A DNA stretch of 53,797 bases from Fibrobacterota bacterium. Its GTDB lineage: Bacteria > Fibrobacterota > Fibrobacteria > UBA5070. Under the pieces are notes generated by a model that ran no database searches, was not told where the DNA came from, and saw only the letters and a list, made by a program, of their open reading frames with translations. Where the stretch lies: positions 1 to 53,797 of the forward strand of contig JBDKGS010000003.1 in the NCBI GenBank assembly GCA_039798065.1, in the 5' to 3' direction. The stretch's first letter is position 1, and every line of letters begins with the position of its first letter. This document shows positions 2,415 through 36,889 of the stretch, one piece after another. Made by a program: the position numbers and the translations under genes.

Positions 2415-2881
2415 GGCATCCCCCTCACTACAACCCACAAGTTGTTCTTGTGAGTTGCAATCGGATTAACCGAGAATCGAACCGTTAAAGATTCCTGAAC
2501 AGTTCGACAGTTTTTGTGAAGCGATTCGCACGGCGTTTCGTACAAATCGACGGAATCGCGAATTCGCTTCGTTCTTGTTCTTGGCATTATTGCTCCCCGG
2601 CGAGATTCATGTGGTGTCCATGGTCTCTCCGGGGTGGGTCGGAGGCAGCAGATCTCGGGCGCGGCCCGGTACTCTCACCCTGATGTCAGGAATTTAGAAA
2701 TCGATTCCTTGGGCGCGGGCGCCTCCCCGCCGACAAATTCTGTCGTGCAAGTAGGACCGATTCGTCGGCGGGGCCGGGCTGCCTGCCAAGCCTCGGCTGC
2801 GCCGGGGTCTTGGCCCTCTCGGACGGCATCCCTGGCGCGGAGAAAACAAGCATCCTTGCGAATTACCTTTTCCTCGCAAGG

Positions 2882-5231: not shown

Positions 5232-5337
5232 GGAGCGACTCGCAAGGTTGAAGGATCGACTCGAAATCGAATCTACAACAATTGGCACATCTTGGGGGGT
5301 GACTTGGGGGGTACGAGAATTTTGGCGACCTTACCCT

Positions 5338-7451: not shown

Positions 7452-8201
7452 TCAAACTCGACCAAAAACCTTCTCCCGGTGCCACGTCAGGTACCGTTCA
7501 TGCTCGTCGGCGACCCACCGCAACCGAGTACTTCTGCTCACACCCAGGGCAGCCGCAGCATCGTCTCCCAGCTGTTCTGAGACCAGACAATTTCCGTCTG
7601 GATCGAAACTGATCAGCCCTCGATCGAACAGCGCGTCGAGATTCGCTACCAGTAAGAATCCGTTGAAAACATCCAACCGTTCGGCATCCGACGCGCACTC
7701 GGCCCAAGGCTTGGCATGACTGGCGCGCAGCACTTCCGGCACAGCCACACTCGTAACGGCACAGCGCCCCTGCCAGTATCGCATCAGCCCTTTGCGGAAC
7801 AGATCCTGCCCCACTCTCTGCCGCACCAGCCGTTCAACCTCGGTCTTCTCCGGACCTTCCCCAATCCCCTGCTGTTTCAGGGTCTCGACAAATTCTTGCA
7901 ACGGATGCGAAGGCAATGCCATCGCCAACTCGGCGGCAACACGCAGGATTGCGTCGATCTCTTCGCTCCGTGCAACCAGAAAACGTTCATCCACCTTCGC
8001 GCCCAGGCGCCGTGACAATTCCTGTCTCATTGTAAAATCGCTGAAACTCAAGATCCAGCCTTCGTCCGATTCCTGGATTTCCAGCTCCTGCGCGTGGCGT
8101 GCCGATCCCAGAACCAGATGCTCAGAAGTCGAGTCCAACAGGGATTCCCAACCGTTCTCGTAACCTGACTTCTTCAACAGCGTGACGTCGAAGGCGTTCA
8201 T
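7452..8201 (-). CDS. HNH endonuclease (HNH_2 type)
   Basis: RQRVGQDLFR...CAVT...LRASHAKPW...RLDVFNGFLL...LDALFDRGLISF. ATGA overlap with the mcrC stop. Confidence 0.88.
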   Translation of the reverse strand: MNAFDVTLLKKSGYENGWESLLDSTSEHLVLGSARHAQELEIQESDEGWILSFSDFTMRQELSRRLGAKVDERFLVARSEEIDAILRVAAELAMALPSHPLQEFVETLKQQGIGEGPEKTEVERLVRQRVGQDLFRKGLMRYWQGRCAVTSVAVPEVLRASHAKPWAECASDAERLDVFNGFLLVANLDALFDRGLISFDPDGNCLVSEQLGDDAAAALGVSRSTRLRWVADEHERYLTWHREKVFGRV

Positions 8202-9454
8202 GTCGGCCTCTTCACAGCTTTTGGTTTGGGCAAATCCACGAAGGCGATCCCGCAATGGGTTCCATCATCCACAAAGGTCCCCCGGGTGGGAGACAGATTG
8301 TGGACGTTGGGGTACACGAGCCAGCTATGCTCGGCCTTCCACCGTTTGTTGTACACGTACATCTGTTTGAGGTCTGCATCTGATGGACTGACCTGGGACA
8401 AGACCTTCCACTTCGTATCCAAAACTGTGATGGCCTTCAACGGCTCAATTCCCAGCAGATGTTCCAGAGGAAGCGCATCGTCGTCACGGGGCTCCAGAAC
8501 CAGGTCAGGACGTACCGTCTTCCGACAGCCTTTGGCATGCCAGAAATGCCTCGCGGATTGGGTTTTCAACGTCCAGGACTTTCCCTTCAAGCTCTTGCGA
8601 ACCTCCTGGGCCACCCATGCTTCCCAGAGATCATTCATGTCGAACAACAGGGCGAACACATCCTCGCGCCCTGCGCACAAGTCCGGATTCTGTCGAAGCA
8701 ACAGCAGCTTGGCCAAGTCCATGGCGTTTCGATATCGTTCGGTTCGACGATCGTAACGAAGGCGCTCGAAATCTTCCGAGCGCACCGCACCCGTCACCCA
8801 TTCCTGGTACGGAAGCAGAAGCGACTTCGCACGGGAGCGCAATAGGCCGCTTTCGGCGCGCATTGCCACCAACCGCAGTCCGATCACAAGAATCCGGTTC
8901 CAGACATTGTGGATATCGTACTCGATGGCCTCGGTGTATACCCGTTCCTGATGCGTCAAATTCCGTCGAAGGTTTTCGCCGACCACGAATCGACCACGCC
9001 AGGCGGTGCGATTCTTTGCCACATGCCGGTAAGTCTTGGCCAATCCTTCGTGCAACAGGGATTGGGCCTCTTCCACGTAGGCGGAGAAGAAGATGTCCAG
9101 GAGGGTATGGCTCTGCAAGTGAAGCTGGGCACGGCTGGAAGCATGGAGATCGAACCCTTTCAGAGCCGCCAACATGTCCAACAAGACGAATTTCCAGTGC
9201 TGCACCAACTGCCTGCGATCCAGGTTTTCCTGGCCGCGCCGGGCGTCGGCCTTGGGAAGGATTTCGATGGTGGTCCGCCCCACTTGAAGGACGCCCACCC
9301 ATTGCGAGGTCCGGATCGAATGATGCCCAATCTCCAAACCAGGGTGATTCGTTCTCTCCTTCCACCGCGCGATCGCGTCGAACTGTCGCTGCGTCAATTC
9401 CTGTCCATCGACATCCTGCCCAACCCGGATTCGCTCGTGTTCGAAGACGACCAC
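8198..9454 (-). CDS. mcrC: McrC-family restriction endonuclease subunit
   Basis: WVGVL...IEILPK, LFDMNDLWE, RPDL...LDTKWK, DLKQMYVY. Lies directly downstream of mcrB. Confidence 0.9.
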   Translation of the reverse strand: MVVFEHERIRVGQDVDGQELTQRQFDAIARWKERTNHPGLEIGHHSIRTSQWVGVLQVGRTTIEILPKADARRGQENLDRRQLVQHWKFVLLDMLAALKGFDLHASSRAQLHLQSHTLLDIFFSAYVEEAQSLLHEGLAKTYRHVAKNRTAWRGRFVVGENLRRNLTHQERVYTEAIEYDIHNVWNRILVIGLRLVAMRAESGLLRSRAKSLLLPYQEWVTGAVRSEDFERLRYDRRTERYRNAMDLAKLLLLRQNPDLCAGREDVFALLFDMNDLWEAWVAQEVRKSLKGKSWTLKTQSARHFWHAKGCRKTVRPDLVLEPRDDDALPLEHLLGIEPLKAITVLDTKWKVLSQVSPSDADLKQMYVYNKRWKAEHSWLVYPNVHNLSPTRGTFVDDGTHCGIAFVDLPKPKAVKRPT

Positions 9455-9458
9455 CTGG

Positions 9459-11306
9459 TTACTCCGCCAAGATCATCTTGAAGGAATCGGCCTTCCAATC
9501 ACCAGAAGGAACCATGGAATAGACGGCCTCCGCATCGACGACTTCATCGTCAAAGCCCTTGGCGAATTTCACCGGTTCACGGTTCGGCTTCTTCACGAAT
9601 CCCTCGCCAAGGACTAATCCGACCTTGTTCCACTCTCCGTAGAAGAACTCCTGAAGCAATGGAATGATCTTGTTGGCGAAGACTTGCTTGAGATCCTCCA
9701 AGGTCTTCACTTTGATCAGGAATGCATGCCCAATGGTGTGATCCCGATCAATCAACACTTCGAGCCGTTGGTTGATGGTACGCAAGATCGCTGCGAGATT
9801 CACACCCTCGACTTCACGTTGGAGCTCGGGCAATGTGGAATCGGGCATCATTTCCACGAACTCGAACCGACGGCGTAAAGCCGTATCCAAGGCCTCAACA
9901 CTGCGGTCGGCTGTGTTCATGGTGCCAAGGATGTGGAGATTGGAGGGAATCCCGAATTCCTTCCGACTTCCAGGAAGGATCACCGTTAGATCCTCAGATG
10001 CTCCCAATCGTTTGTCTGGCTCCAACAGCGTGATGAGTTCGCCAAAGATCGCGGGAATGTTGCCGCGATTAATTTCATCGATGATCAAAACAAAATCTGT
10101 CTTCATTTCGATAGGATTCGATGAAACCGGGAACCGACGGCCGATCTCCTCGGCAATTGGTTTGACATACGCCCGATTGTAGGCTTCGGCTACTTCACCC
10201 GAATCAAACGCCTTTCGAACATCGTCGATGCTCACCGGATAAGGTTTCAATGCGTCCGAACTTTCAGGCATCACCGAGAACGTCGTATTCCCTTGGTACG
10301 AAACCTTGAATGGTTTCCCCCTCAGCGTCCTTAGTTGAACTGGTGATTCCGCAATCTCCGACAGAAATTGCCCGATGGAATCCCGAGTTTCTTTCGCTGA
10401 GGATTTTGAGGAAGCATCTTCGCAAATCTCACGCAAGATCCCTGACTTCATTTCGTAAGCGACATCTCCATCCACCAGAGTCGGCTTTAGACCTTCTACA
10501 AAATCCTCGTAGGTCATCGCCGGGTGGAAGGTCACGAACCGAATCCGTTGTTGCCGTACCAGTTCATCCCATCGTGGACGCAATACGTCTTCACGATCCC
10601 ATCCACGAACGGTATTAAGCGATTCATTGTCTGCCAGCGCCACCGCGTGGATCATCGTGCTCCAGGTCTTGCCCGTACCGGGAGGCCCAAAGAGAATTCG
10701 ATTGACCGCTTCAGGTTGGGTTGATGGATTCGTCATATCGATCTCCGCCTCTTCCATATCAGACGCTGCCAACGGGACATTTCCCGTCAAGGAAAGTCCA
10801 AGCCCAAGTGCAACGGCTTCGTAGCTGGGAGCGAAAGATTGGATCTTCGCGATGGACCAATCGACAAGTTCGTCCATCGACATCTCACAGCCCGATTCGG
10901 CAGGCATCAAGGCTACCAGAGGCGAGTTGTTGGAAAACTCCTTCTGAAAACCTGACAGAAAACGTCTCCTCATGTCGCCTTCGGTCGTGACATCCAGTTT
11001 TACGACAAAACCATGACTCGCATCTGTCCCGACTGTATACGCCAACTCCTTGGGCGAGGTCTTGGTTGGATAGACCTTCCCCCAGGTGTATCCGAGGAAT
11101 TTCTGCCCTTGGTTGATTGGACGTCGCCGAACATCTGTCCAGCCATCAGGGAACAACTTTTCCTGAAGAGTGGCCGCCCATTCCAAGGTCACATCGTAAT
11201 CGGCCTTCAGCAAACCGTAACCGGCAACATGGCCAGGATTGTTCGGATCCCGCCACTTTCCGCCAAGGTCTGCGAGTCTCTGGAAGTGTTCAAGAGAGAA
11301 CTGCAT
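9459..11306 (-). CDS. mcrB: McrB-family AAA+ GTPase
   Basis: GPPGTGKT, TFHP..YEDFVEG, IIDEINRG, MNTADRS, DTALRRRF, IGHAF. Confidence 0.93.
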   Translation of the reverse strand: MQFSLEHFQRLADLGGKWRDPNNPGHVAGYGLLKADYDVTLEWAATLQEKLFPDGWTDVRRRPINQGQKFLGYTWGKVYPTKTSPKELAYTVGTDASHGFVVKLDVTTEGDMRRRFLSGFQKEFSNNSPLVALMPAESGCEMSMDELVDWSIAKIQSFAPSYEAVALGLGLSLTGNVPLAASDMEEAEIDMTNPSTQPEAVNRILFGPPGTGKTWSTMIHAVALADNESLNTVRGWDREDVLRPRWDELVRQQRIRFVTFHPAMTYEDFVEGLKPTLVDGDVAYEMKSGILREICEDASSKSSAKETRDSIGQFLSEIAESPVQLRTLRGKPFKVSYQGNTTFSVMPESSDALKPYPVSIDDVRKAFDSGEVAEAYNRAYVKPIAEEIGRRFPVSSNPIEMKTDFVLIIDEINRGNIPAIFGELITLLEPDKRLGASEDLTVILPGSRKEFGIPSNLHILGTMNTADRSVEALDTALRRRFEFVEMMPDSTLPELQREVEGVNLAAILRTINQRLEVLIDRDHTIGHAFLIKVKTLEDLKQVFANKIIPLLQEFFYGEWNKVGLVLGEGFVKKPNREPVKFAKGFDDEVVDAEAVYSMVPSGDWKADSFKMILAE

Positions 11307-11503: not shown

Positions 11504-12103
11504 TTACAGCATTTCCTGTCGATCCGCTTCATACCAGACGAACGGGGCGTATTTCTTGAGGCAGCCCGAAGTTCTATCCTGTTTGACATACTCCGAGAAA
11601 AATCGCGCACGCATTGACATCGTCTCGGGATCATTGAGCTTCAGTCGATCGATTGTTCTCTGAGCATCGTTTTGAATTTGGGTACCAAGGCTTGGATTCG
11701 GCCGAATATGCCCTGTCAGAAGATTCAGGTGAAATGTTTCTGGGGCAAGGCCAATTGGATCGAGAACATCATCGAATTTGTTCTTGCTGCGATTGGCACC
11801 CAGGCAGGCAAGACGATAGTTACTCCATTCGTAGGCTGCCCCTGCATTGCTCGACTTTGCAATGAAGTGGTCCGTTGAACTTGCACCTGTTGACCATTCG
11901 AAAAAGATCGACAGATAGGCACAGGTTCCACCATAAGCATCCCACAATGGCTTGTTCATACTTTGCCAATAAGCAGGCAGGGCGGAAGCCATTGGTGGTG
12001 GAGCATCGAGCGCGACACCTTCGTTCGCAAGCCAGTTAAGCCCCCTCTGACGGACTCGTTGATCGAAATTGCGCGGCTCTTGCTGAAGTTCAACCGGAAT
12101 CAC
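11504..12103 (-). CDS. HNH-like nuclease (PtuB-like partner of the ATPase)
   Basis: CAY...DHFIAKS...AYEWSNYRLAC..AN..K...LDP. GTGA overlap with the ATPase stop. Confidence 0.8.
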   Translation of the reverse strand: MIPVELQQEPRNFDQRVRQRGLNWLANEGVALDAPPPMASALPAYWQSMNKPLWDAYGGTCAYLSIFFEWSTGASSTDHFIAKSSNAGAAYEWSNYRLACLGANRSKNKFDDVLDPIGLAPETFHLNLLTGHIRPNPSLGTQIQNDAQRTIDRLKLNDPETMSMRARFFSEYVKQDRTSGCLKKYAPFVWYEADRQEML

Positions 12104-13503
12104 GCTCCCAACTCCAATCCAACTTCCGGCTCGTCAGGCCTATCGCGCTTCTTCTGGCTACGCAGATCCACCTTTTTCAAGGCCGTGGCGAGTCCGGAAA
12201 GAAGTTGCTGTTGTCGATTTTTGTCACGCAGAAATCGCCAACTGATGAGATACGGATCTTGGGGATTCAATGCCGTGATCAGCTTCTGATTCATCTCCTC
12301 GATCGATTCGGGAGATGGAGCTGCCTGGTCTAGCAAGCGTCCCGCCTCTTCGATCAGGCATTCGTACTCAACAGCACGCCCACTCTTCAGATCGAATGCA
12401 TCGCTTGTGACCCAATTCTCGATGCTTCCGTGGTGCTCGAATTCACGCTTGGCGAGAACCACATTCCCTTGCTCCAGATCCAGGTCAAACCATGAATCCT
12501 GTTTCGCGTCGAACAGAGGCTCCACCGAGGCCATGATCATGGGCGAATGGGTGACTGCCAGAATCTGTGCACGGACATCGGCGTTGACGTTGTTTCTGTT
12601 GGAGATGCCGTCCACAGCCCCCAACAGCGCAGGAATGATCTTGCGCTGCCATTTTGGATGAAGGTGCGCTTCGATCTCGTCGACAAGAAACACGATCTGG
12701 TGGGTCGGCGATTCGCCGATCATGGCGGCGGCTCTCAGGTGCTCTTCCCACGCCCACACAAGCAAGTAGGCCAAGGCAATGATCCGTCGCACACCCGATG
12801 ATGCATGAACAACGGCCACATTTTGTCCGTAGGGCATTCTCAATGTGGGAATGTCGCGTACGTCATCCAGGGAAATCCGCGTGAATTCGCCCGGCACCAA
12901 CGGCTCATCTTTTGAAGGAGAAAGGACTGCCAGCACATCCTTCAGACGCTGGAAAGCTTTGCCGTTTTCCTTTTGCCAAGATGCCCAATCCTGGATCAAT
13001 CCGTTGCACAACATTCCGGCCTTTTCGCCAGGAAGTCCGTCCCAGATTTGCCGCGGATCAAATACATAGGCAGAAGGCCGCACCTGAAGCTCGTTATTGG
13101 AATCTTCGTTCCAATAGTTGCGTGCTGGGTCCCAAAGGGCAAAGCTCCCATCGGCCATCGCGTACAAGACCAAACCAGGATTGGCGGGCCGACCCGGGCG
13201 AGCTTTCCATTTCTGGTTTTTCCGATCGAAGGAACTTGCATAGGAGTTTTCCTTCGACTTCCCCGAAAAACGAAATTCGATGGTTGCTTCCCCACTTTCG
13301 CGTGGCAAGGCAATCTTCCCTGAGACCAACTTCTCGTTGATTTCAGCAGGCCATTTGCGGGTGAGCGCCCACCAAGCGGCATCCAGCAAGAAGCTCTTTC
13401 CAAGGCCATTGTCGCCCGAAATCAAATTCAAACGTTCACCAAGATCGTTCAGTTCCAGAGTGGGAGCCGGACCAACATTTGTCAGTTTGAGTGACTTGAT
13501 CAT
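12100..13503 (-). CDS. ABC-class (AAA_21-like, PtuA-like) ATPase
   Basis: Walker A GDNGLGKS, signature ASSG, Walker B LVDEIEAHLHPKWQR, H-loop THSP. ATG at 13503. Confidence 0.9.
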   Translation of the reverse strand: MIKSLKLTNVGPAPTLELNDLGERLNLISGDNGLGKSFLLDAAWWALTRKWPAEINEKLVSGKIALPRESGEATIEFRFSGKSKENSYASSFDRKNQKWKARPGRPANPGLVLYAMADGSFALWDPARNYWNEDSNNELQVRPSAYVFDPRQIWDGLPGEKAGMLCNGLIQDWASWQKENGKAFQRLKDVLAVLSPSKDEPLVPGEFTRISLDDVRDIPTLRMPYGQNVAVVHASSGVRRIIALAYLLVWAWEEHLRAAAMIGESPTHQIVFLVDEIEAHLHPKWQRKIIPALLGAVDGISNRNNVNADVRAQILAVTHSPMIMASVEPLFDAKQDSWFDLDLEQGNVVLAKREFEHHGSIENWVTSDAFDLKSGRAVEYECLIEEAGRLLDQAAPSPESIEEMNQKLITALNPQDPYLISWRFLRDKNRQQQLLSGLATALKKVDLRSQKKRDRPDEPEVGLELGA

Positions 13504-13567: not shown

Positions 13568-16500
13568 TCATCCGTTACCCTCCTCCCGATCCCACGCTTC
13601 CAGCACCAGGCGGCGGGTGCGGTATTCGCCAAATTCCGACATCTCGCGATTCTTGAGCACGCGGAAGGTTTCTGTCGGGTACTCGGGACCCATCACGTCG
13701 GAAGGATCCAGAATGTAGCGCAGCTCGTCGCGGGTGAGGCCGTACAGGCGGGCATAGCGGGCATCGAGCTCGGCACGCAGCACGGCGCGGCGATCAGGGT
13801 CGAAGCGGAACGGAGCACCGGTGAAGCCCAGATCCTCGGCCCATCCTTTGAGATCCCAGGCCGTGTAGGTCAGCTCCAAAACGCGTGGGACAATGTACGC
13901 GAGATCGGCTTCGCTGTAGGCGGTGGGGGGAAGAATTGGAAGCTGTTTCACAATGAAGAAGTTGAGATGAGTCCCACCAACTTTATTCCTTACAACAAAG
14001 TCGAGAACTAGCGCACATAAATTCCCTAAAAATGCTGCGCATTTCGTGGCCGGGATATCATCACCAAACCGAATCAAGGGCATATTATTGCCAACTGCAG
14101 CATATTGAACAACAGATGCAATAAGTGTGCGCTCGTTGGTCGCATTAGCAATATCGCGCCACCCCATAAGCCATCGAGGAACACGGTGCAAAAGAATAGA
14201 ACGCACTATATCTGTAATCGAGGCTACAGATTTAAGCATTTCAAGTTCAGCGTTTGTGAGCGGCTCGAAGATTCGAGCCTCAGTTAGGTCTTTTACGCCC
14301 AGCCAATCCTCATCACCTATCGGAAGCGCAACAAATCGCCCCCCTCCTGCCGCAATGACTCTCTTTCTAATTGATTCCTCGCCACCACCTGAGATAGATA
14401 TATCAGGACAACTCGCGGCAACCCAAACAGCAATCGCACAAAGTAGGCCATGCTCATCGTTTGAGTTCCAAGCTCGAGAAAGAAAATTTGGAACCTTCGC
14501 ACTTTTACCGAATACATTCCGTTCATTCACCCAATAGCGAGGCGTAACCGAAAAGTCAGGGCTGTATTTTTGTGAATCAAAAACATCTTCCGTTTCGACA
14601 ATCCATTTTTGATCTTCAAATTGTCCTCGGTGCGTAGCCCAACGATGATCAAATTGATGCATCATTTTCGCTTCAAGAAGAGGAAAACTATCACTTTCAG
14701 GATGATCACGAAAATGCCTTGAATCAGTATTCATCATAAACATCAATTGGAAGGAAATTCCCCAAGGATTTTCTAAATCTCCCACTTCATCGGCTTCACG
14801 TATCAAAACTGGTACATTACCATATATTTGCTTAGCTAGGTTCGCATCTACTTGCGACCTAAAAATTGGACACGTAAGTGTATTTGGGTTCACTAAACGG
14901 AAATCATCATTACTTAGCGAGTAGCGGCGGCGCGGATCAAGCAACTCTTCAACACTAAGGATATAATTGCAAAGCTGGATTGGGCCATTATTTTCGCCCA
15001 TAGTGAGCAAAACGAATGGCGTATCGGGATGGACTGCTGGAAAAATGCGCTTCTGGTTATCGAACCCGGTTAAACTAATCAACCTTCCATTAGCTATATA
15101 ACCCCAGAGATGTTGCGTGAATGAATCCGTTGATATTCCAGCAGGAGTAATAATCCCTGCTCGCCCGGTTTTTGATAGAATATTTAGACAAGTTTCAGCA
15201 AAGAGCGAGGAAAGATTTATTCGCCCTCGACCAGATAAACGAAAACGTTCAGATGCATGTACAAATGACTGAACAGCTTCAGTAAGACGAATTTCGGACG
15301 AGTATTCATTAAAGAGTACGACATTCGTTGACTTAAGTTCTTCTATCGCTTTTTCACGCGATGCCATATTTTTTATGGCCGAAATATCAGGAGCCTTAGT
15401 TGAAAAAAACTCCTGTGGATCAAGTTGAAGCATATCCCACGGCGGATTGCCCAACACCACGTCGAACCCGCCTTTGGACAGCACGCCCGGAAAAGCCAAA
15501 GGCCAGTGGAGAACTCGAGCCTTGAGACATGCGAGCTGTGCCGCTTGCAAAGCTCGGTGGGTTTCGTGCCGAGAGCTTCCCATGTAACGCACGTCCACCA
15601 GCGTGCGGGTGGTAGGCGTGACCTCGCGATTTTCCTCGGTCTTGGGTATCAGGAAAGCTCCAACCCAGGCGTCGGCCATCCGAGCCACGGTGCTGCGGCG
15701 TGCTTGGTGCAACGCTTCTTCGTAGGCACGGAATTTGGCAGCAACCTGGTCCAAGGTGTTGTCGGGAAGTTCATCGACCTTCCCCAAGGATTCAAGCGGA
15801 TCAGGTCCACCCAAGTCCATCGACAACAAGCTCGAATCCTGTTGCTGGATCAGAACCTTGGCCGCATCCTTGTTCTGTTTGGACAAATCTTTGCACACCA
15901 GCTTGTCGTCGCCGCTCAGGGCCACGAAAGCTTTGTCAGGAATTGGAAGCTCCAGGACTTTTAGGTCCATGAGACCCAGCAATGCATCGCCGCACACCAA
16001 GTGGTGATCCAAGAAGCTCAAGGGTCGCTCGGCCTCGAACGACTCCAGCCACAGCGCCGTGCGAGCCAGCTCTACGGCCATGGGATTGCGGTCCACGCCA
16101 AAGATGCAGTGGCTGATGACGTCGCGCAGGGCATGGCGGTAGTCGGCGGGGCTGACGGCTCCGTCGGGATGCTGTGCCTGCGCCAAACGCTCGGCCACGC
16201 GCCGCGCCGCGGCCAACAAAAAATGTCCCGATCCGCACGAGGTGTCGATGATCCGAAGCCCCAACAACGCACCAATCGGATCAGCCGGGTTCTGGGCCAA
16301 CCGGTCGGCAATCACCGGATCCAACGATGTTTTGAGCAGCTCCTGCACCAAGCTGTCTGGCGTGTAGTAAGAACCGCTAGTCTTGCGGGCGTTGCCTTTG
16401 GTGGAACCTTCGGTGTCACCGATTCCCACAAACCCAAAGGAACGGATTTCCAGATCCACACGCGGCACCAGCTCCAATAGGCTTTCGTACACCGACCCCA

Positions 16501-17776
16501 ATTCTTCGGGCCCCATGTTCCGGTAATCCACGCTGGCAAACGATCCCGTCTTCCCCGACCAGCGCAAGGCGCGCAAAGCCGAAAGCAACGCGGCGTTGCT
16601 CAGACATGAATTGTCCAAGTGCGGGCACTGGGAAGAGGCGAACAACCCACCCAACGCGGGCAAGCCCAAAGCTGCCTCACCAGCCTCCAAGGCCTTCCAG
16701 ACGATCCGCTGGCCTTCCCACAGATCGTGGTGGGTGCTCGATGCCCCCGGTCGCAAACAGCGATCGCGAAGGCGTTTTTGGGAATAGCCTTCCAGGTACA
16801 GCTTCTGCGCGTCCGCCGATCCATTTTCAGGGTGCAGAAGTTCACGTTCTTCCACCGCGAAGATGAACAGAAAACGGTAGATCAAATGCAACAGCTCGTC
16901 GAAGTACGCCTTCTCGCTCAACTCGTTGGAGAGGATCGCTTGGCGTAATGCACCATTTTCTGTCGCTTGTAAAAACCCTGTCCCCAAGGCCAGAAGTGCC
17001 TCCTGCACACCTTGCCGCAGCGAGTCGCGCACGCGCAGACCGGTCTCCTGACCCATCTTGCGCCAGCGCTCCCAAATACAGTCGTCAGGGGCGGCATCGG
17101 CCTTGCCTGCTCGGCTGCCGTGGAACAATCTCCAACACGCGGTGAAGGCCGCCCAATCTCGGGCGGTCAGAATCTGCTCCAGGTCCACTTCCAGCCACAC
17201 AGGGCGTGTTAGGGCAGCCGAATCGCGCAGGAGGCGCAACTGCCGTCCGTTGGTCACCACGGCCCACAGATGACCTTCACTGGCGTTCAGGAACTCTTGA
17301 GCTAGTTGGAACGGGCTCTTGCGGCGCGTACCGGTCCCTGCAATGGCAAAGCGGGCATCGGGCTCGTCCAGTTCCTGGTTGTGTGGGGCGATCACCACAG
17401 CCACACGACCGCGAGCCATGTGCCCTACGGGGAAGGAACGGTCCCCTATCGTCACCGGGACAATTCGTTCTATCGGGCCGAATCCAAACGCGTGCCCCAA
17501 GAGGTCGCGCACAAACTCTTCGGTGGCGCGCATCGGGTCGTGATCATCGCGCTTGCGACGTGCATCGAACAAGCCCCATTGTCCTTGTGCGATCTGGAAA
17601 AAACGACTGATCTCTTCGCCAAGCTTGAGACCAGGAAGGATCTCGTAGTCGTCAGCCTTCTGGAAATCCAGTTCGCTCGCCACGGCCTTCGCCAGGTGGT
17701 CGGGCACGAAGAGCCCGCCTTCCAGTTGCAGGTACGAAAAACCCAAGTGGGCCGATTTACGGATGGCGCGGCTCAT
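13568..17776 (-). CDS. Large N6-adenine DNA methyltransferase (Eco57I / DrmMI-like)
   Basis: LGSVYESLL, RKTSGSYYTP, IIDTSCGSGHFL (motif I), GVDRNPMAVELA, GNPPW (motif IV). 1402 aa. Confidence 0.92.
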   Translation of the reverse strand: MSRAIRKSAHLGFSYLQLEGGLFVPDHLAKAVASELDFQKADDYEILPGLKLGEEISRFFQIAQGQWGLFDARRKRDDHDPMRATEEFVRDLLGHAFGFGPIERIVPVTIGDRSFPVGHMARGRVAVVIAPHNQELDEPDARFAIAGTGTRRKSPFQLAQEFLNASEGHLWAVVTNGRQLRLLRDSAALTRPVWLEVDLEQILTARDWAAFTACWRLFHGSRAGKADAAPDDCIWERWRKMGQETGLRVRDSLRQGVQEALLALGTGFLQATENGALRQAILSNELSEKAYFDELLHLIYRFLFIFAVEERELLHPENGSADAQKLYLEGYSQKRLRDRCLRPGASSTHHDLWEGQRIVWKALEAGEAALGLPALGGLFASSQCPHLDNSCLSNAALLSALRALRWSGKTGSFASVDYRNMGPEELGSVYESLLELVPRVDLEIRSFGFVGIGDTEGSTKGNARKTSGSYYTPDSLVQELLKTSLDPVIADRLAQNPADPIGALLGLRIIDTSCGSGHFLLAAARRVAERLAQAQHPDGAVSPADYRHALRDVISHCIFGVDRNPMAVELARTALWLESFEAERPLSFLDHHLVCGDALLGLMDLKVLELPIPDKAFVALSGDDKLVCKDLSKQNKDAAKVLIQQQDSSLLSMDLGGPDPLESLGKVDELPDNTLDQVAAKFRAYEEALHQARRSTVARMADAWVGAFLIPKTEENREVTPTTRTLVDVRYMGSSRHETHRALQAAQLACLKARVLHWPLAFPGVLSKGGFDVVLGNPPWDMLQLDPQEFFSTKAPDISAIKNMASREKAIEELKSTNVVLFNEYSSEIRLTEAVQSFVHASERFRLSGRGRINLSSLFAETCLNILSKTGRAGIITPAGISTDSFTQHLWGYIANGRLISLTGFDNQKRIFPAVHPDTPFVLLTMGENNGPIQLCNYILSVEELLDPRRRYSLSNDDFRLVNPNTLTCPIFRSQVDANLAKQIYGNVPVLIREADEVGDLENPWGISFQLMFMMNTDSRHFRDHPESDSFPLLEAKMMHQFDHRWATHRGQFEDQKWIVETEDVFDSQKYSPDFSVTPRYWVNERNVFGKSAKVPNFLSRAWNSNDEHGLLCAIAVWVAASCPDISISGGGEESIRKRVIAAGGGRFVALPIGDEDWLGVKDLTEARIFEPLTNAELEMLKSVASITDIVRSILLHRVPRWLMGWRDIANATNERTLIASVVQYAAVGNNMPLIRFGDDIPATKCAAFLGNLCALVLDFVVRNKVGGTHLNFFIVKQLPILPPTAYSEADLAYIVPRVLELTYTAWDLKGWAEDLGFTGAPFRFDPDRRAVLRAELDARYARLYGLTRDELRYILDPSDVMGPEYPTETFRVLKNREMSEFGEYRTRRLVLEAWDREEGNG

Positions 17777-20547
17777 AGCTCCTCCGGAAGCAGCACGTAC
17801 ACACCCATCACATCAACCGGTAAGCTTGGGGTCACGCTGTAATCGCCCACATCGCGCGACGCCTCGCGCACACGACGGTGGTCGGTCAATAATTGTGTGG
17901 CCCGTTCGCGTGCCACCTCTTCCAGGCGCGGCGTCTGGGTTTGCAGGAACTCCAAGGCCGATCGCACTTGGTTGGCGGCTTGATCGGGCGAAAGATTCGA
18001 GGTCGCCACTACATCCAGTAATTTCGAGGCAGCCTCTTCAGGAAGCCAAACCGCGTTGGCGCGGCCTTCCACGGCCACCGCCACAGCCTCTTCAGCCAGT
18101 AGGTTGCGCGATTGATTGCGCCGTCTCACCCCCAGACAATGACGCAGCCGCAGCAGGAATATGGTTGTCACCTTCTGAACAGAATTTGTTACCACCGCCG
18201 CCGATCGGCTCGCCAGCGTGTGGGTGCCCGCGAGAGCGCCCTCCAGCAGATGATCCGACAAAAGGGCAATCAACGGATCAGTACGGTGCAGAAAGCGGGC
18301 GCTGGGGTGCGGCGGAAAAACAGCGTCCACGGTTTGGACTCCAACCAATCCTTCGAGCTCCAGGCGTTCTTTCAACACCTGGGGGAACCCCGACAAATCC
18401 AGTCGTCGCGCCGTAACCGAGCCGTCGACAGATTCCGGATGCACCTGCAGGCGACGACAAGAACTGTCTAGGAATCGCAATACATCGGATGGATCACCCA
18501 AAACCTTCCGCTCGCGATTCCATTCGGGAAGGACTTCTTCGGGCTTGAGTCGGCGCTGGGCGAACACGGTGCGGTTGGCCTTGGCTTTTTCCATGGCGTC
18601 GTCCCAACGCGTTTGAATGGGCGCGAGATCCATTTCCAAGCCAAAGTCTAGACTGGTCTGGAGCGTGGCCGCGTGGGAGCGTTTCATGAGCGCCGACTGG
18701 AGCATGGCCGTTCGCAAACGAGATTCGTCTTCAGGCATGGGGACCATCACGCCCAGCTTGTCCTGGATCTCCTTGGCCTTGCGCAGAATCACCTTGAGAA
18801 TGAATCCATCCACCGGATTGTCCTGGCCGTACAACAGCGCGCACTTCACTTCTTTGCTGCGCTGACCAAATCGGTCCACGCGACCTTCGCGTTGTTCGTG
18901 GCGGGTTGGGTTCCAAGCCAGATCGTAATGGACCACGGCAGTGAATCCGTGCTGTAAATTGATGCCTTCCGATAAGCAGTCGGTGGCCACCAAAATCCGA
19001 TTTTTGTCACCCGATGAAATCAACGCCTGGATCCGCTCCTCGCGTTCGTCGCTGGAGTAACGGCCGCTCACGGCATCGATCGCCACACCCCTGAAGCTCT
19101 TGCGCAGTTCGTCGGCGACATATTCTGCCGTGGCCACATACCGGCAGAACACCACCGGATGGAAGCCTTCTTTCACCAAGCCCTTGAGCTCCTTCACCAG
19201 GCAAGCCAGCTTGGGGTCGCCAGCCACCCCTTGCAGAGCGCGAGCTTCGCCAATCAATCCCCGCAGGAACTCTTCGTTCTCGATCTGCCCGGCAGGCTCG
19301 ACGTCATTTTCTTGCAGCTCTTCGGCCACGCCGTCCAGCAGCAATTCTTCTTCGGCCTCGGGCTGAGCTTCCGCCTCCACACCCAACCGCGTCTCCAACG
19401 CGCGGATCGCCGCAGCCGGAGACGACGACACGCAGCGCAACAGGGCCAAGGTGGCATACCAAGCCAGGTGCGTGGAGCTGCGTTCGGCCAAGCCTCGGCA
19501 ATACTCCTGCACATGATCGAAGAATTCACCCCATTTGCCCGTTAGCGAGTACGTGCATTCGGCAACGAACCGCTTGGGGAAGACGGGATTATCCTGCCAC
19601 TCGTCGATGTCCTTGCGTCGGCGTTGGACAAAGTGTCGGGCCAATTCGTCGCGCAAGGGTTTGCGAGCGTTGGCATCCAATCCTTGCAACTCGGCAAATT
19701 CTGGTGCAAGCAGCGAGAGCAAGTTGTGGAACGCTTCGTCGTCGCCGGAATGCGGCGTGGCGGTGAGCAGCACGAGGTGCCGCTCCTTGTTTTCAGAAAG
19801 CTTGCGCAACAGGTCGAACCGCAATTGTCGCCCGGCCCCAATCCGCGTGCAGGTATGGGCTTCATCGACGATCAAGAATCCCGGTGCCGTGTTCAGGAAA
19901 TGATCTCGGTGGCGCTCGCTCTTGATGTAGTCCAAGCTCACGACCACGAACGGATTCTCGTCAAAAATCGACTTCCCTTGTGGCAACAAACGTTCCAATT
20001 TCGCCGCACTGGAAGCTGTGAGTCCAATAGCCGGAAAGTGGAATCGATTAGACAATTCCTGACACCATTGATCCACCAGATGCGGCGGACACAAAACGGC
20101 AACACTATCGATCTCGGCGCGATCGAACAATTCGCGGGCGATGAGGCCCGCTTCGATGGTCTTTCCGATACCCACATCGTCGGCGATCAGAAGACGCACC
20201 ACGCTTTGGCGCAACGCCATGAGCAACGGCACCAACTGGTAGGCCCGCGGTTCGACGGCGATGTTGCCAAAACTCCGGAACGGACCAGCACCCGCACGCA
20301 ACTTGAGCTGCAGGCTATCGCGCAACAACCTTGCCGCGTCGTGGCTGCCCGCCTTGGATGGATCGGGCCAATCGAAGGTGGCGGCGCGTGGCACTTCGCG
20401 TTCCAGGGCCGGCAGGATAACAGCCACATCCTGATCGGACCCACCCAGCGGACGAAGCCTCAAAACCGAGGTATTGGGAGACGGCTCGACCACCCATTCG
20501 CGACCGCGGGCATGCACCAGAGAGCCAGGAACAAAGGTGGCGGTCAT
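17773..20547 (-). CDS. SNF2-family helicase (DrmD-like)
   Basis: [52 protein letters not shown] overlaps at both ends. Confidence 0.92.
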
Positions 20548-23500
20548 GCGGTCACTCCAGGGCCGAACACCTCGGGGGTGCTGACAAATTTTGCGTGCCA
20601 TGCGGCAGAATCGTTCCCGAACACCACAACTTGAATCCCCTTGTCCGACGCCACAGCCAACATTTCGGGAGTTGGAGCATCGAGAAGCACCACGGCACGT
20701 TCGGTGCCGTAGAAGGCAAGGGCCACACCGGCATCACCTAGCGCGACATTCCATTTGCTGGGCGGGCGGAATCCACCGGACTCCATGGCTTCCTTCCATT
20801 TTCCGCCCAAGGAGTTCGCATCCACCGTTGCGGACTTTGTCGCATCGGCAGAACGTACCTGCGACCGAGCCAAGGCGAGCAACAATGCCTGGACATCTGC
20901 ATCACGCCGATCGATGCGTTCGTGGTCGGGCTGGTTGTAATACGACAACACGCAGCGATAGCATCCTGCTTGACAGGAATCGTCTTTCTGTGCCAGGACA
21001 CCACCCGCTTCGGGTATCTCGTAGTGCAGGATCTCCAGCGCCTTGCGCGCCACCTGGGCCATGGTTTCGGGATCCTTGGCCAACCGGGTCAAAACACCCG
21101 CGCCACCTTCGGCCGCTTCGTAGAACAGGATGGACAGCCGCGTGTCGCCCTTGGGCAACGGCTCAGCTACAAGCTCCGATTCCTCGATCTGAAAGGTCTG
21201 CTCGATGCCCCGTTTGAGCGCCGCCTGCAAGGTGGCCATGCAACTTTCTGTCAATGGCGTGGCCGGAGTGAGAATCAGGATGTTCCGATGATCTTCCACG
21301 TAGGGAACGATCCTCTGCGGAGGAACCTTGGTCTTTTCTTCGGGAGAGTCGTCGTGGTCTTGATCGTCGTCCTGCTTGCTCCAATGGCCTGTCAGGGGGT
21401 TGATGTAGAAGCCTTTCTCGTCCTTGTTCTTGCGACGACGCCACCCCAGGTTCACGCGCCAAATCCGTGCTGCAGGCGAATAGACCAGCTTGGCCAAGGG
21501 CTCTCCCTTGGCGTCCAGGACTTGCGCCTCCTGCTTCTGGATGGCCCCATCCGGACCGGGAAGGAAACGGTACGAGGTCTGCAACTCGAATCCTTGTCGT
21601 TGGCGTTCCTCGTCGTTCACCGAGATCCGTTCGACAGCTTTTGTCTCGACGGTCTCGATGCGGTACAATCCGCCCACACGATTTCCGTCCAACAAACGCT
21701 CGCCGCAATGATCGCAGACATTGGCCGTTGGATCGGGCAATTTTTCCGTCCCCAAGTGTCCATATCCGCAAACCGGACACACGCGCATGTCGATGGTAGG
21801 CAGCTGCGAAGTCGCCCCAATCGCCGCGACACCCGCCACGTTGAGCTTGACCCGATCGACACGGAACATGCGTCCTTCGTGGTAGATGAGGCTGCGCGGA
21901 CCAAATTCCGACAAGGCCAGGAACCGAGGCCGACTGACCATGTTCCCTTCGCGACCTTTGGCTTTGGCGCCGTTGCCCTTGTCGCCGGGAATCCAGGCCA
22001 TTAAGGGAAGGCGCGGGAAGTTGTAGCCTGGCAAAAAACCTTGCGAAGCCAAATAGCGGAACAGACCAAAATCTGAATTCTGGGTGTCGGCTTCACTCAT
22101 CAACAATCCATACTGGCGCACGGCATCGTGGTAACGCATCTGGGCGTTCTTGCGCTCGGTAGGCGGCGTCGCGTGACTTTCGATGAGGGCGTTGGCCATT
22201 TTCATCTGGACGCGAGTGGCTTCCACCAAGGTGCGCCAGCGTTCCAAGGATTGATCGAGATGCTGCGTGCAGCGCGACAATGTTTTGTCCAACCAATTTT
22301 CGTCATACCAGCTCACACCTTGCGAGGCGAACTCCTTCTCCAAGGCGGAAAGGATGGCGCTAGCCTGCACACGTGCTTTGGTCTTGACTGCTGGTCTCTC
22401 GAGTTGAGCACGCAAATCGGGCAGCAGAGGCTTTTCCGGAGCTTCCATGTCCAGAAGCGCCTTGATGCTCGACCCAAGGTTGATTTCCTGGCAACCAACC
22501 CAAATCGCATGAACATGGCTCTGGATCAGTTCGGCATTCGACAGATCCAACGTGGGCGCCTTCACCACACCATGCACCATCTCGGCGGGATTGTGGAAGA
22601 ACCACTGGTCGTGCGGGCTCATAGCCGCGCAATAAGTGACCACCAGCGCAGGCTGTCCCGAACGTCCCGCGCGACCGCTTCGCTGTGCGTAGTTGGCCGG
22701 TGTTGGCGGCACATTGCGCAGGTACACCGTGTTCAACGACGAGATATCCACGCCTAATTCCATGGTGGGCGAACAGAACAATACCGGCAGCCGTTCCAAC
22801 GGTTTTCCGTTTTCGCTGCGCCACCGTTTTTTGTCATCGGTGGTGAAACGGAACCGGCTTTCCAATTCCAACCGGCGGCTGCTTTCCACCTGGGCCGTAT
22901 GCTCGTGGGCTTCCAGCTCGAACAGCGGATGCGAGTCCTGCGAAAGCAAACCCGACATGGTCCCATACAGGAGCCGGAAGAACCGGTTGGTGGAATCGCG
23001 AGTCGGCGCAACGTCGAACGGCGTCAACTGCCAAACCAAGCGCGATGCCTTGAACAGCCACCCCTTCGACTCCCGGTCCAAAACCTCTTCGGAAAGGAAT
23101 CCCCATCCCTTGGCCGCTTCCAAGAAACTCAGCACAATCTCAGCGACCCGATCTCGCTTCCAACGCTGCACTTGCCCCTCGAAGGGGGTGCCTTGCCAGA
23201 AAGTGGCGCGCATGATGAGCGTCACCAGTTTCGAGCGCGGACCAGCACTGATAAACTCAGTCTTCCTCAGCTTCTTGTCGCCCGGCATGTTGCCGGTGAC
23301 CAGGTAGCTGGAGGTCTTCAGGATTTCGTCGGCGGCGAATCCCCACGGATCCTTGATGGTATTGAACGTTTTGGTCTTCGCCTGGTCCTGGTGTGCCGGA
23401 TCGAGGTAGATGGAATCGAGGCACAATCCGGTCCGCATTTCATCGAAGACCATTCGCGCCAATTTTTGGCGTGTCTCGGGAGAGAGTTCGGAGAGTACAG

Positions 23501-25781
23501 GACGATTGTGGAAACTCGCTTCGTGCGCACAGAATTCGTCAAGCGTGTCGTAGTCGATGCTCAACAACTCTAGCTGATCCAGATTGGGATTGTTGAACCG
23601 CCAACCTTTGCGCAGGTCGCGCAACAAGCGGTAACCCAACACGAATTTGATGGCCGACTGGGCGTCCTTGCGCTCCAACCCGATGGCTTCGGGATTGACC
23701 ATGTACTCGCCCAGAGCGCCGGGATCGTTGGAGCCAAATCCCAAGGCCTGGAAGACTTCTTCGGACAGATTCTGTTCGGTCAGAATTCCGCCCTTGCGTT
23801 GCAATCCACCGATCAATCCGGAACGCATGGTCACCAAGAAGATGAAGTCGTTGAAGTGTCCCGCTTGCAGGGCCGCATCCTGCCGGTTGTCCGAAAACCC
23901 GAGGATCTTGCGCAGATCGGGGGCACCTTCGGGAACATCCTGTTCGAACAACTGGAGCAAGGCGCTGAGCACCAGCATGGTCGTGGCCGACGAGCGACCT
24001 TCGCCCGACAGGCTCAGAAGACGATTTGTGTCTTTGCCTCTGGCCTCATGTGCGATGGCGCAATTCACGCAAAACTGGAATTTTCCCGGTACATACCAGT
24101 ACGACTGGTTGCCACCCTCGCTCCCCTTGTCGTCCAAGCGAACCACGGTGGGGACCGCGTGGGCATAACCAGGTTTGAGCCGCCACTCGCCCTTCTTGAA
24201 TTCCAACCAGTGATCGGGAAGGTTCTGGATGTCTCCGTCGAATTCCTGCCCACCGCGAAGAGGGACCAAGAAGCCTGGAACCGATCCGTTCGGATTTTGT
24301 CCTTGGTCATCGATGCTTCGCGGCACATAGGAATGGGACGATGGATCGTTCCAGACAGGCAGATGCTCTTGACCGCATTCCCGACAAAAATGGGCAGCGA
24401 ACAATGGCGTGTCGAACGGCCGGTTGGCGGCGAAGCGCTGGGCATCCAAAGTGACTTCGCGGGTTCCCTCGGCATCGAGGGTCACCATCACCTTGCCGGG
24501 ACCGCTCACAAACTGGTGCAGCTTGAATGCGAAGGGTTTGCGGCCATCAGGAGACGTCTGGTCATGCGCCTGTAGAAGAAAATCGGCCAACACGCTTTTC
24601 GCAACGGCCTGATCCACTCCGGAATCGGCCGCCAATTTCTCGGCCGCTTGCTCAAGGCTCAATGGAGTTGCCCGCTCGGGCCGTCCAACACCCTTCATGT
24701 GGATGCCCAAGGTCAGTTCGATCCAGATCGCCAACGGATCCCGACAAAATTCGTCGTAACTGGCCCAACGAGTCGATTCCGCTTCGACTCGTTCGCGAAG
24801 ACGATTTTTGACCGAAGCGATGTCCGATTTCTTGTCGGTCACGCGCTCCAGTGTTTCCTGGATCACGTTCGCGCTTTTGATCTCGGTTCCAAACAAACGG
24901 CTGGCGACTTCGGCAACCACCCGTTGCTTTTCGTGCTGCGTGCCAGTGCTCGACATGGTCGCCGAGGTTCCGATGCACACCAAGCTCCTGGCCTGCAAGC
25001 GCTCGCGCAAGCGTCGCACCAGCATGGCGACATCAGCTCCCTGTCGGCCGCGGTAGGTGTGAAGCTCGTCCAGCACGAGAAACTCCAGCCCGTGGCAATG
25101 TTCGATGACGCGCTGGTCCTTGTCGTTGAAGCGAGTCAACAACAGTTCCAACATCATGAAGTTGGTGAGAAGGATATCGGGAGGATCGTTCGCCAACCTC
25201 TCCTTTTCTTCCTGGTTCTCCTGTCCCGTATAACGCCCCACCGTGAACGGCAGAGGGTTCATCCCATGCTGGAACTTCTTGAGTTCCTCCAACTGGCTGT
25301 TCGCCAATGCGTTCATAGGGTAGATGACGATCGCACGCGTCCTGGGAGCTGGATCCAACTCCTTGGCCTTGAGGATGCTATTCACAATCGGCAAGAAGAA
25401 GGTCATGGATTTGCCCGACCCAGTACCGGTGGTGACGACGTAGCTCTCGCCCCTGGCCGCCAAGGCCAAAGCTTCGGTCTGGTGCGTGTAGAGCCGCAGA
25501 TCCTTGGGATTCCCATCGGGCTTGTCGCGACGGAAAATGTCGGCACACAGCGGGTGCAACGCACCCTCACCAGACAATTCCTGTACGGTCTTGTCCTGCT
25601 GGTAGAACGGATTGATCTGGAGCAGGGGATCGGGCCAGAACCGTTTTTTGTCGTATTCGGCGTCGACCTTGGCGCGGATATCGGGTGCGGCGATGCGCAC
25701 GAAGCTTCGCGAGAAGCTCGCGTACTCGTTCACCAGCCGGTCGCGGAAGTCGAAAATCGGGGTATTGGCGCTAGGCTTCAT
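20544..25781 (-). CDS. YprA/DruE-like SF2 helicase with C-terminal DUF1998 zinc site
   Basis: [53 protein letters not shown]...CQAGCYRC. 1745 aa. Confidence 0.92.
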
Positions 25782-25957
25782 GCTTCATTGGCTCCACCGG
25801 CTCGCACCCATGAATCGACGTCGTCACGCTTGAACTTCCAGAACCGTCCCACCTTGTGCCCGGGCATGCCTTTGGCATTGACCCAGGTGTAGATGGTGTC
25901 CTTTGCGACACCCAAATATTCGGCGATTTCGTCCACGGAGAGCCAACGATCGGTCAT
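25778..25957 (-). CDS. Excisionase-family (HTH_17) DNA-binding protein
   Basis: [22 protein letters not shown]...[16 protein letters not shown] overlap with the helicase start. Confidence 0.9.
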
Positions 25958-25971
25958 AGGGTTCAAACCTA

Positions 25972-26030
25972 GTTATTGCGGGTTTGGTTGGGTTTGGCTG
26001 GAACCGCGTTTGTTGGATTGGATCGTCGCT
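25972..26030. promoter_or_regulatory. 10-bp-period direct repeats upstream of the HTH gene (candidate autoregulatory site)
   Basis: GGTTTGGTTG GGTTTGGCTG at 25981-26000, with degenerate flanking copies. Confidence 0.45.
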
Positions 26031-26047
26031 CAAGTTCATCCTGTTGC

Positions 26048-31864: not shown

Positions 31865-35671
<3,807 letters not shown>

Positions 35672-35723: not shown

Positions 35724-35771
35724 AATCGATCCGGTCCCTTTGCGATAGGTCACCGAAGCCAGATTTTGACC
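35724..35771 (-). pseudogene. Short remnant paralogous to the secreted protein at 27432-27902
   Basis: GQNLASVTYRKGTGSI versus GQKSASVAYRKGSGTI. Confidence 0.55.
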
Positions 35772-36562: not shown

Positions 36563-36889
36563 CTCCTCGATTCCTTGGTCATGGATGGCGCAACGGGCGT
36601 TGTTCATGAAATGGTAAGTCGTTCCAGCTCTTTGCATTGCCGGAGCACCTCCAGGTCGGTGGCTATGTAAAAATTCGGACCTGGCATCGAATCCACCTTC
36701 GCTCCCCAATCCGTGTCCCCCATCGCCCTGGTGACCGCCTGGCGCAACGCCCTGGCGAAGCTGGTCAAGAACTGACGTCGGCTCGTCGACGCTGATGTTT
36801 GATGGCCACCGAGCCGGCAGCTCCCAAGCGGGAAAGGCCTGCGAAGGTATCTTCTTGACGATTTTCAGAACGACAAATTCTGACTTTCG

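Follow-up and report, generated by a model that had tools for sequence, protein, structure and literature searches.

A contig of a Fibrobacterota bacterium (assembly GCA_039798065.1, contig JBDKGS010000003.1) raises the question of whether four chained genes on its minus strand, at 25957..13568, form a new kind of anti-phage system or a copy of a known one. The stretch analysed, here called the window, covers positions 1 to 53,797 of the contig (53,797 nucleotides), and the genes encode a small helix-turn-helix (HTH) protein, a 1745-residue helicase with a fused DUF1998 domain, an SNF2 helicase and an adenine methyltransferase. A preliminary description, made from the sequence alone, had rated them, of everything in the window, the most promising as a novel or variant system. 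Our analysis gives a different answer. The locus is very probably a copy of the anti-phage system ARMADA Type I in which the operon armC-armA-armB is intact; an accessory MAD1-type HTH gene stands in front of it, and it lies within a defence island. The operon is a further copy of a system catalogued in 2025, not a new kind.

Identity of the operon

ARMADA was described by Bell et al. (bioRxiv September 2025, PMC12458937) as the combination of a YprA-like helicase, a BrxHII/RapA-like helicase and a PglX-like methyltransferase, and the gene order given there for Type I is YprA, SNF2 (BrxHII-like), methyltransferase (PglX-like). The window has the same order. The preliminary description had suggested that such a three-gene core had been named ARMADA, and the preprint of Bell et al. 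bears this out. A full-length relative of the window ArmC, 67% identical to it and encoded in a Fibrobacteria metagenome-assembled genome (MCB9495960.1, our P0007), is entered in Table S1 of that preprint as "ARMADA Type I helicase". So is OKY73994.1, in the cluster of our P0013, which is 56% identical to ArmC. We assigned ArmC to the Type I clade through these relatives named in Table S1. Gene content and order thus match an already defined system, and because the match is full, the claim to novelty is refuted on the terms that the preliminary description itself had set.

The helicase belongs to a very large family of full-length proteins of about 1760 amino acids: 7996 of the 8000 scored candidates were relatives of ArmC at E <= 1e-3. 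For comparison we took 59 related loci (L001-L059) from genome contigs. The SNF2 gene lies 3' of armC in all 51 related loci with at least 1 kb of downstream DNA, a count that includes L006, which the automated tally (50) had dropped as a filter artefact. The methyltransferase gene follows in 40/41, the exception being L055. The neighbourhood survey that the preliminary description had called for thus finds the three-gene linkage kept. ArmD, the hallmark of Type II, is absent from the window, where the gene after armB encodes PtuA. The genome holds a single copy of the ARMADA locus.

The window genes stand in the order HTH, armC, armA, armB and are joined through three ATGA start/stop overlaps. 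These had already been noticed, and the open reading frames (ORFs), their translations and the junction sequences all confirm them: GCATGAAG at HTH/armC (25781-25778), CGCATGACC at armC/armA (20547-20544) and CTATGAGC at armA/armB (17776-17773). The mechanical ORF of armA is 18 codons longer, running to 20601, and the ATG that overlaps the armC stop is at 20547. Most relatives have gaps of 20-40 nucleotides between the genes, whereas in the window every junction is an overlap. The four genes are genuine and not chance ORFs: each has strong Pfam or PADLOC matches, and full-length relatives of the helicase number in the thousands.

The architecture of the proteins agrees with this assignment. 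In ArmC, Pfam places DEAD at residues 99-278, Helicase_C at 995-1042 and DUF1998/MZB at 1518-1611, all within one ORF, so the earlier reading of a helicase and DUF1998 in a single 1745-residue protein holds. Walker A (G119-S125), the D238-E239-L240-H241 motif and motif VI (Q1033-R1040) are invariant in a 12-sequence alignment (A1). Some 700 residues lie between the match to DEAD and that to Helicase_C, and this insert between RecA1 and RecA2 carries two CxxC pairs, C466/C469 and C571/C574. A single CxxC..CxxC cluster (C1335, C1338, C1356, C1359) lies in the oligonucleotide/oligosaccharide-binding (OB) region. Both the pairs and the cluster are invariant in A1. Bell et al. (PMC12458937) list CxxC pairs in the insert and a single OB-region zinc cluster as features of the Type I helicase, and describe BrxA-like, beta-barrel zinc-module and MarR-like domains inserted between its RecA1 and RecA2.

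ArmA has the Pfam domains SNF2-rel_dom and Helicase_C, with intact GIGKT and DEAH motifs, and matches RapA in the Protein Data Bank (PDB) at 2.8e-20. ArmB matches Eco57I and N6_Mtase in Pfam and DrmMI in PADLOC (9.8e-62), and both its motif I (SCG515SG517) and its N777PPW motif are intact.

The window has in common with ARMADA Type I the three proteins and their order, CxxC pairs within a long insert between RecA1 and RecA2, one OB zinc cluster, DUF1998 and a Vsr-like C-terminal fold. It differs in the coupled MAD1-type HTH gene upstream, in having ATGA overlaps at all junctions, and in a helicase tail that lacks the catalytic signature which the actinobacterial representative of the preprint possibly keeps. 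Coordinates are collected in Table 1.

Table 1. Features of the ARMADA locus and of the adjoining defence island in the window.
Feature	Coordinates	Strand	Remarks
38-nucleotide leader, candidate operator	25959..25996	-	CAAACC-N13-GGTTTG plus CAAACCC direct repeat; directly 5' of the HTH start
HTH gene	25778..25957	-	59 amino acids; stop overlaps armC start (ATGA)
armC, YprA-family DExH helicase with fused DUF1998/MZB	20544..25781	-	1745 amino acids
ArmC C-terminal Vsr-like (PD-(D/E)xK superfamily) domain, predicted	20562..20828	-	residues ~1652-1740
armA, BrxHII/RapA-like SNF2 helicase	17773..20547	-	924 amino acids from the ATG at 20547
armB, PglX/DrmMI-like N6-adenine methyltransferase with N-terminal restriction-endonuclease-like domain	13568..17776	-	1402 amino acids
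armB central mosaic low-GC cassette, putative target-recognition region	14173..15858	-	DNA identity to L001 lost here
PtuA (Septu)	12100..13503	-	PADLOC PDLC00307 3.2e-173, profile 1-422 of 424
PtuB (Septu)	11504..12103	-	PADLOC PDLC00348 1.3e-66, profile 1-192 of 198
McrB-like AAA_5	9459..11306	-	defence island
McrC	8198..9454	-	defence island
HNH_2 protein	7452..8255	-	defence island
DUF932	6430..7380	-	defence island
Mrr_cat + Top1 zinc ribbon	5412..6308	-	defence island
Fic	4248..5288	-	defence island
Schlafen AlbA_2/HATPase_c_4 protein (ATPase)	900..2438	-	defence island

Relation to other defence systems

A search with PADLOC, also proposed in the preliminary description, gave matches to DruE, DpdE, DrmMI and mad1; it could not return the name ARMADA, as PADLOC 2.0.0 has no ARMADA models. 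Taken at face value, its best names, which call the helicase DruE, the SNF2 protein DpdE/DrmD and the methyltransferase DrmMI, would make the locus a variant of class 1 DISARM, Druantia or Dpd. We find this hardly credible. The NCBIfam scores fall far below their cutoffs, with DrmD at 298 bits against 610, DrmA at 22 against 950, DpdE at 198 against 500 and DpdJ at 91 against 800; the PglX equivalog is also far below cutoff for the operon proteins. DUF1998 is fused to the helicase, with no separate DrmB, and the 20 flanking proteins scanned gave no match to a phospholipase D (PLD) nuclease, to DruA-D, DruH or DruM, or to Dpd proteins. PADLOC likewise found no match to the DpdA/B/C modification genes among the flanking ORFs. 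Bell et al. (PMC12458937) set exactly such an architecture apart as ARMADA.

The likeness to DISARM is real, as the preliminary description had said in calling the locus DISARM-related but not canonical. Class 1 DISARM shares an SNF2 helicase, a large N6-adenine methyltransferase, a YprA-family helicase with DUF1998 and a presumed dependence on methylation. In DISARM, however, DrmA and DrmB are separate proteins and the PLD nuclease DrmC is present, whereas in the window the two are fused and none of the 40 ORFs scanned against Pfam has a PLD-family match, as had been noted. The window helicase is also closer to DruE than to DrmA: its PADLOC matches are DruE3 (6e-97) and DruE1 (2.4e-95), against DpdJ at 2e-29 and DrmA at 3e-14.

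DruE of Druantia type III is the closest characterised helicase, with the RecA core inserts, OB/zinc elements and MZB in common (bioRxiv 10.64898/2026.05.13.724758). As described there, it is a 3'-5' helicase that senses single-stranded DNA, needs its MZB zinc site and can dispense with its nuclease tail; it differs from ArmC in its partner DruH, in PLD rather than Vsr-like tails, and in lacking any partner of the methyltransferase or SNF2 kind. The PDB sequences that ArmC matches best, 9tu7_Y (2108 amino acids, 2.1e-41) and 9wae_A (1970 amino acids), are presumably DruE. A Druantia preprint discusses ARMADA II and counts ARMADA among the systems built on a YprA helicase.

ARMADA Type II (armABCD of E. 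coli NCTC 12900, ATCC 8739 and EDL933) has homologous ArmA, ArmB and ArmC (PMC12458937; mBio 2026, PMC13463889). Its order is armA-armB-armC-armD, not the armC-armA-armB of the window, and it has ArmD, a RelE-like domain fused to a GajB/UvrD-like helicase, which the window lacks. Its ArmC, as described in these sources, has additional EEP and second Vsr domains, together with two zinc inserts in the OB region. Type II gives broad, non-abortive defence, and Walker and NPPW mutants lose protection (PMC12458937). It is the only ARMADA type for which we found experimental proof, and all four genes are needed in enterohaemorrhagic E. coli (PMC13463889).

Identity with Hma, a DUF499-ATPase system, was ruled out, as ArmA matches HmaA only partially.

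One observation on ArmA concerns annotation. It matches the PADLOC profile labelled "DpdE" (PDLC02853) over its full length at 4.9e-206 and DrmD at 1e-76, while the NCBIfam DrmD and DpdE scores are those given above. The profile PDLC02853 of PADLOC-DB 2.0.0 evidently captures ARMADA ArmA, and such loci would get the wrong name.

The Vsr-like tail of ArmC

An AlphaFold2 model of the ArmC tail (residues 1603-1745) has a pLDDT (predicted score in the local distance difference test) of 83. VIA-align matches it to I-Bth0305I (3r3p_B; Z 7.8, root-mean-square deviation (rmsd) 2.8 over 81 amino acids), a DUF559-like protein (3hrl_A; Z 7.5) and Vsr (1cw0_A; Z 6.5). These Z values are middling, yet 3hrl and 3r3p are the top entries in Bell et al. 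too (PMC12458937). A Foldseek search of the model against the PDB gave nothing at E <= 0.001, and the tail has no Pfam match even at E <= 10. The homologous tail of L058 matches DUF559 at 3.2e-5; a PDB sequence search with that domain gave a chance match only. The model suggests that the ArmC tail keeps a Vsr-like fold.

The signature is another matter. The residues that we counted as catalytic are those generally known for Vsr/DUF559 domains. Of the related loci, 49 have a complete tail; the full signature is present in L058 alone and absent in 48/49. At the position of the first Asp, 32 of those 48 have Ala, 9 have Asp and 7 have some other residue; the window has Leu. A library search with ArmC residues 1380-1745 matched 1582 proteins at E <= 1e-3. 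Among the matches listed (the best 150 of 1582), 77 have the DUF1998 motif, and 70 of these have complete tails. The full signature is present in 7/70 of these cluster representatives and absent from 63/70, with the first Asp in 33/70, in a sample whose ranking by similarity to the window biases it to the window's branch. Without a catalytic signature in the Vsr-like domain, it appears unlikely that ArmC itself cuts DNA.

Related to this family is a gene in L003 (10001-11095) that encodes an ArmC homologue no further than residue ~360, with no armA or armB despite 10 kb of downstream DNA. It is probably a truncated remnant.

The methyltransferase and its central cassette

The N-terminal 330 residues of ArmB were modelled with a pLDDT of 87. 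The model resembles the nuclease domains found in type IIG/IIL enzymes and in HsdR, such as BpuSI (3s1s_A, Z 8.5) and an HsdR fragment (3h1t, Z 8.4); the match to DrdV (Z 8.6, rmsd 15) is loose. The nuclease motif expected in such a domain is PD..ExK. Because the whole ArmB family has YP[VI]...V[VI]APH in its place, no canonical nuclease site is evident in the N-terminal domain.

The middle of armB behaves differently from the rest of the gene. DNA identity to L001 is ~85% on either side of the central cassette and is lost inside it. At the protein level, identity to L001 is 86-100% for residues 1-600, 12-58% for 650-1250 and 78-96% for 1251-1400. GC content drops to 0.38-0.49 for residues 800-1300, against ~0.6 elsewhere. 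For residues 800-1250 the highest identity to any of the 59 loci, in alignments of at least 400 residues, is 42%, against 93% for the core. This pattern would fit an exchange of the target-recognition region.

In two relatives armB is seemingly split, into 18062-21016 and 22091-23518 in L020 and into 19355-22063 and 21799-24366 in L046. These genes may be broken or frameshifted.

The upstream HTH gene and its leader

The HTH protein matches HTH_17 in Pfam (1.6e-17) and mad1 in PADLOC (4.9e-15, positions 1-56 of 60). It scores 96.1 bits, over a cutoff of 80, with the NCBIfam equivalog NF047737 antiphage_MADS1 and 67.9 bits with the excisionase family TIGR01764, and it is the sole gene of the operon above an NCBIfam equivalog cutoff. 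MADS (mad1-mad8 of Pseudomonas aeruginosa; Nucleic Acids Research 2026, PMC13662399) opens with the same kind of small HTH gene, and self-marking by N6-methyladenine (m6A) would be common to both. No other MADS protein is in the window; the score for MAD2 is 27 bits, where the cutoff is 720.

Homology to L001 (~85% at the DNA level) begins 39 nucleotides 5' of the HTH ATG, and the flanks beyond are unrelated, so the leader marks the upstream border of the cassette. Its sequence is unique in the window. Since the shared DNA starts ahead of the HTH gene, the HTH travels with the cassette. In L001, as in the window, the HTH stop overlaps the armC start. The leader may be an operator for the HTH protein, which we take to be an accessory regulator of the operon.

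The HTH was also considered as a conserved ARMADA component, and this was ruled out. By tblastn it has homologues in 2/59 loci, L001 (98%) and L008 (60%), and when 112 same-strand ORFs from upstream of armC were scanned against Pfam, HTH_17 turned up in the same two loci out of 52. Other regulator-like genes occupy the upstream slot elsewhere: HTH_26 in L010 and L054, HTH_73 in L023, WYL in L028 and a ribbon-helix-helix gene in L043. A SoFic-like Fic/DOC protein of 320-404 amino acids lies immediately 5' of armC in 13/52 loci (L026, L027, L029-L031, L033, L035, L044, L045, L047, L048, L056 and L057).

The preliminary description had given the operon its own Xis-like regulator. The excisionase-family HTH is there, by both Pfam and NCBIfam; the role of regulator is plausible but less firm, with HTH_17 upstream in so few loci. 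This leaves the question of whether the gene is instead an excisionase (AlpA/Xis-like) remnant of the mobile element that delivered the island. The TIGR01764 score and a cassette border only 39 nucleotides 5' of the gene would suit such an origin, and AlpA-like excisionases occur in elements that carry ARMADA II (Bell et al., PMC12458937). But we found no integrase in the 40 window ORFs scanned, no tRNA in the window and no att-like direct repeat in 1-27000, and for that reason we regard a remnant as the less likely account. The stop/start overlap with armC in two loci also speaks against it, as does a score above the cutoff for MAD1, which opens another methylation-based defence operon. The 60% homologue in L008 likewise sits just 5' of armC, and beyond it lie glycosyltransferase and dehydrogenase genes, with no integrase. 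Overall, an excisionase remnant seems to us unlikely. The same scans, with the same outcome, removed the borders of a mobile element from our list of candidate features.

The Septu neighbour and the defence island

The operon lies at one end of a defence island that spans ~900-25996. The ptuA gene of a Septu system starts 64 nucleotides after armB on the same strand. A scan for terminator-like sites found none between armB and ptuA and one just 3' of ptuB, though the signal is weak, as the scan gave fewer sites than shuffled sequences. The RNA fold of the armB-ptuA spacer is not better than that of shuffles (z 0.41). PtuA is also found in L001, with a weak PtuA-like match in L005 and none in any other of the 59 loci. 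PtuAB and McrBC were therefore rejected as conserved partners: the window McrB and McrC are unmatched in the 59 loci.

What follows armB varies. In a hand tally, the gene right after it encodes an ABC/SMC-type ATPase in 17/33 loci with enough downstream DNA. The modules found there are LmuB-like in 11 loci, HEC-03 in L002 and L054, PD-T4-4 in L014 and HEC-01 in L045 and L058, while the window and L001 have Septu. One family of ~650 amino acids recurs in 11 loci and is absent from the window; its members share 23-78% identity, have an N-terminal GHGVGKT P-loop and are weakly LmuB/DUF2326-like. Examples lie at 22477-24462 in L008, 22612-24606 in L013 and 22971-25028 in L043, with 8 more loci. 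This family may be an undescribed recurrent fourth gene of ARMADA I. The words Septu, PtuA, ABC, SMC, OLD, Fic, Lamassu and LmuB are absent from the main text of Bell et al. (PMC12458937).

Could HTH, ArmC, ArmA, ArmB, PtuA and PtuB form one composite unit, with Septu, as a pair of ABC ATPase (PtuA) and HNH nuclease (PtuB), supplying the cutting lost by a degenerate Vsr domain, in parallel with MADS and its MAD1 HTH, methyltransferase and ATPase-nuclease modules? The shared strand, the 64-nucleotide gap and a terminator-like site only just 3' of ptuB are compatible with this, and the block shared with L001 runs into PtuA. So are the frequent ATPases after armB (17/33), the mad3/mad4-like pair embedded between armC and armA in L005, and the MAD1 equivalog at the head of the operon. 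Septu, HEC-03 and PD-T4-4 are, however, stand-alone systems, and nesting of Septu and ABC-ATPase modules inside or next to BREX, DISARM, restriction-modification and Hma systems has been described, by Payne et al. (bioRxiv 2024), with no dependence shown there. L002, a 67% relative, has a different module, and 16/33 loci have none. In L058, the sole locus where the Vsr signature is complete, armB is likewise followed by an ABC ATPase, HEC-01A, so that the module and the loss of the nuclease do not go together, and DruE works without nuclease domains (bioRxiv 10.64898/2026.05.13.724758). We judge the composite very unlikely. As nesting is already described and L058, with its signature intact, has a module too, we treat Septu as an independent neighbour and not as part of ARMADA.

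A broader proposal would take in the family. A large branch of Type I (the window, 48/49 loci and 63/70 representatives) would have a dead nuclease tail and would exclude phage DNA uncut, by helicase-driven clearance as in BREX or DruE, or through the variable module of an ABC ATPase, with or without a nuclease, after armB; with the MAD1-type HTH, the six window genes would then be a MADS-like composite. As a whole we hold this to be decidedly improbable.

Several observations on the neighbourhood stand apart from these questions. Schlafen AlbA_2 + HATPase_c_4 genes, some with a winged HTH, lie between armA and armB in L027 (18061-19488), L028 (18051-19418), L046 (18079-19458), L059 (16659-18107) and L049 (12176-13864), with shorter forms in L030, L031 and L035; the window has a Schlafen AlbA_2 gene of homologous type 11 kb away, at the far end of the island (900-2438). 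G-rich direct repeats with a 12-nucleotide period, TTTTCAGGGGCA-like and CTTGGGGGGTGA-like, occur at 1096-1142 and at 4460-4493 / 5291-5312, in or near the Schlafen-like and Fic genes. A second Fic gene lies at 35771-36709. Outside the island, 31865-35671 encodes a hybrid histidine kinase of 1268 residues that combines multiple PAS domains with two receiver domains and Hpt, and 45557-51142 is an ORF of 1861 amino acids whose sole Pfam match is PA14.

Discussion

Some of our results weigh against the assignment to ARMADA Type I with an accessory regulator. We found no experimental test of Type I in the literature, where Type II alone was found tested. Neither PADLOC 2.0.0 nor NCBIfam has ARMADA models, so the name depends on the classification of a single preprint. 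Adenine methylation at the locus is a prediction from sequence. Aligned to the L058 tail (..ADF..IFIDGPHH..), the window tail has Leu1688 at the first Asp and a deletion of the 10-residue His loop, whereas the Type I Vsr domain is "predicted active" in the text and "active?" in Table S2 of the preprint, for an actinobacterial representative (PMC12458937). No sigma-70-like promoter was found in a scan of 25700-26300. Finally, the HTH is not conserved in the family (2/52 loci), which makes its regulatory role a guess, and HTH_17 proteins include excisionases.

Domain content, gene order, intact ATPase and methyltransferase motifs, the kept three-gene linkage and the variable centre of ArmB are established directly. 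The mechanism that we propose goes further and is modelled on better-known relatives. ArmB would methylate adenines (m6A), its exchangeable central region determining the motif, and would thereby mark host DNA as self. ArmC, as a DruE-like 3'-5' helicase with zinc modules, and ArmA, as a RapA-like translocase, would engage invader DNA that bears no mark, unwinding it and translocating along it at the expense of ATP, and so clear or block it without killing the cell. ArmC itself would probably not cut DNA. Because its Vsr-like domain lacks the catalytic signature, defence would be helicase-driven, or would act via nucleases encoded elsewhere. The small HTH protein may bind the 38-nucleotide leader and set the expression of the operon, like a C-protein or BrxR.

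The locus is thus a good specimen with modest peculiarities, not a discovery. As a compact, fully coupled Fibrobacterota operon with intact motifs, it is a clean candidate for an experimental test of Type I. L001 differs from it almost solely in the central cassette of ArmB, and the two make a ready-made pair for working out how specificity is encoded. For the family as a whole, the missing tail signature in most of the sampled relatives argues against a simple cut-the-invader model, and fits the dispensable nuclease domains of DruE.

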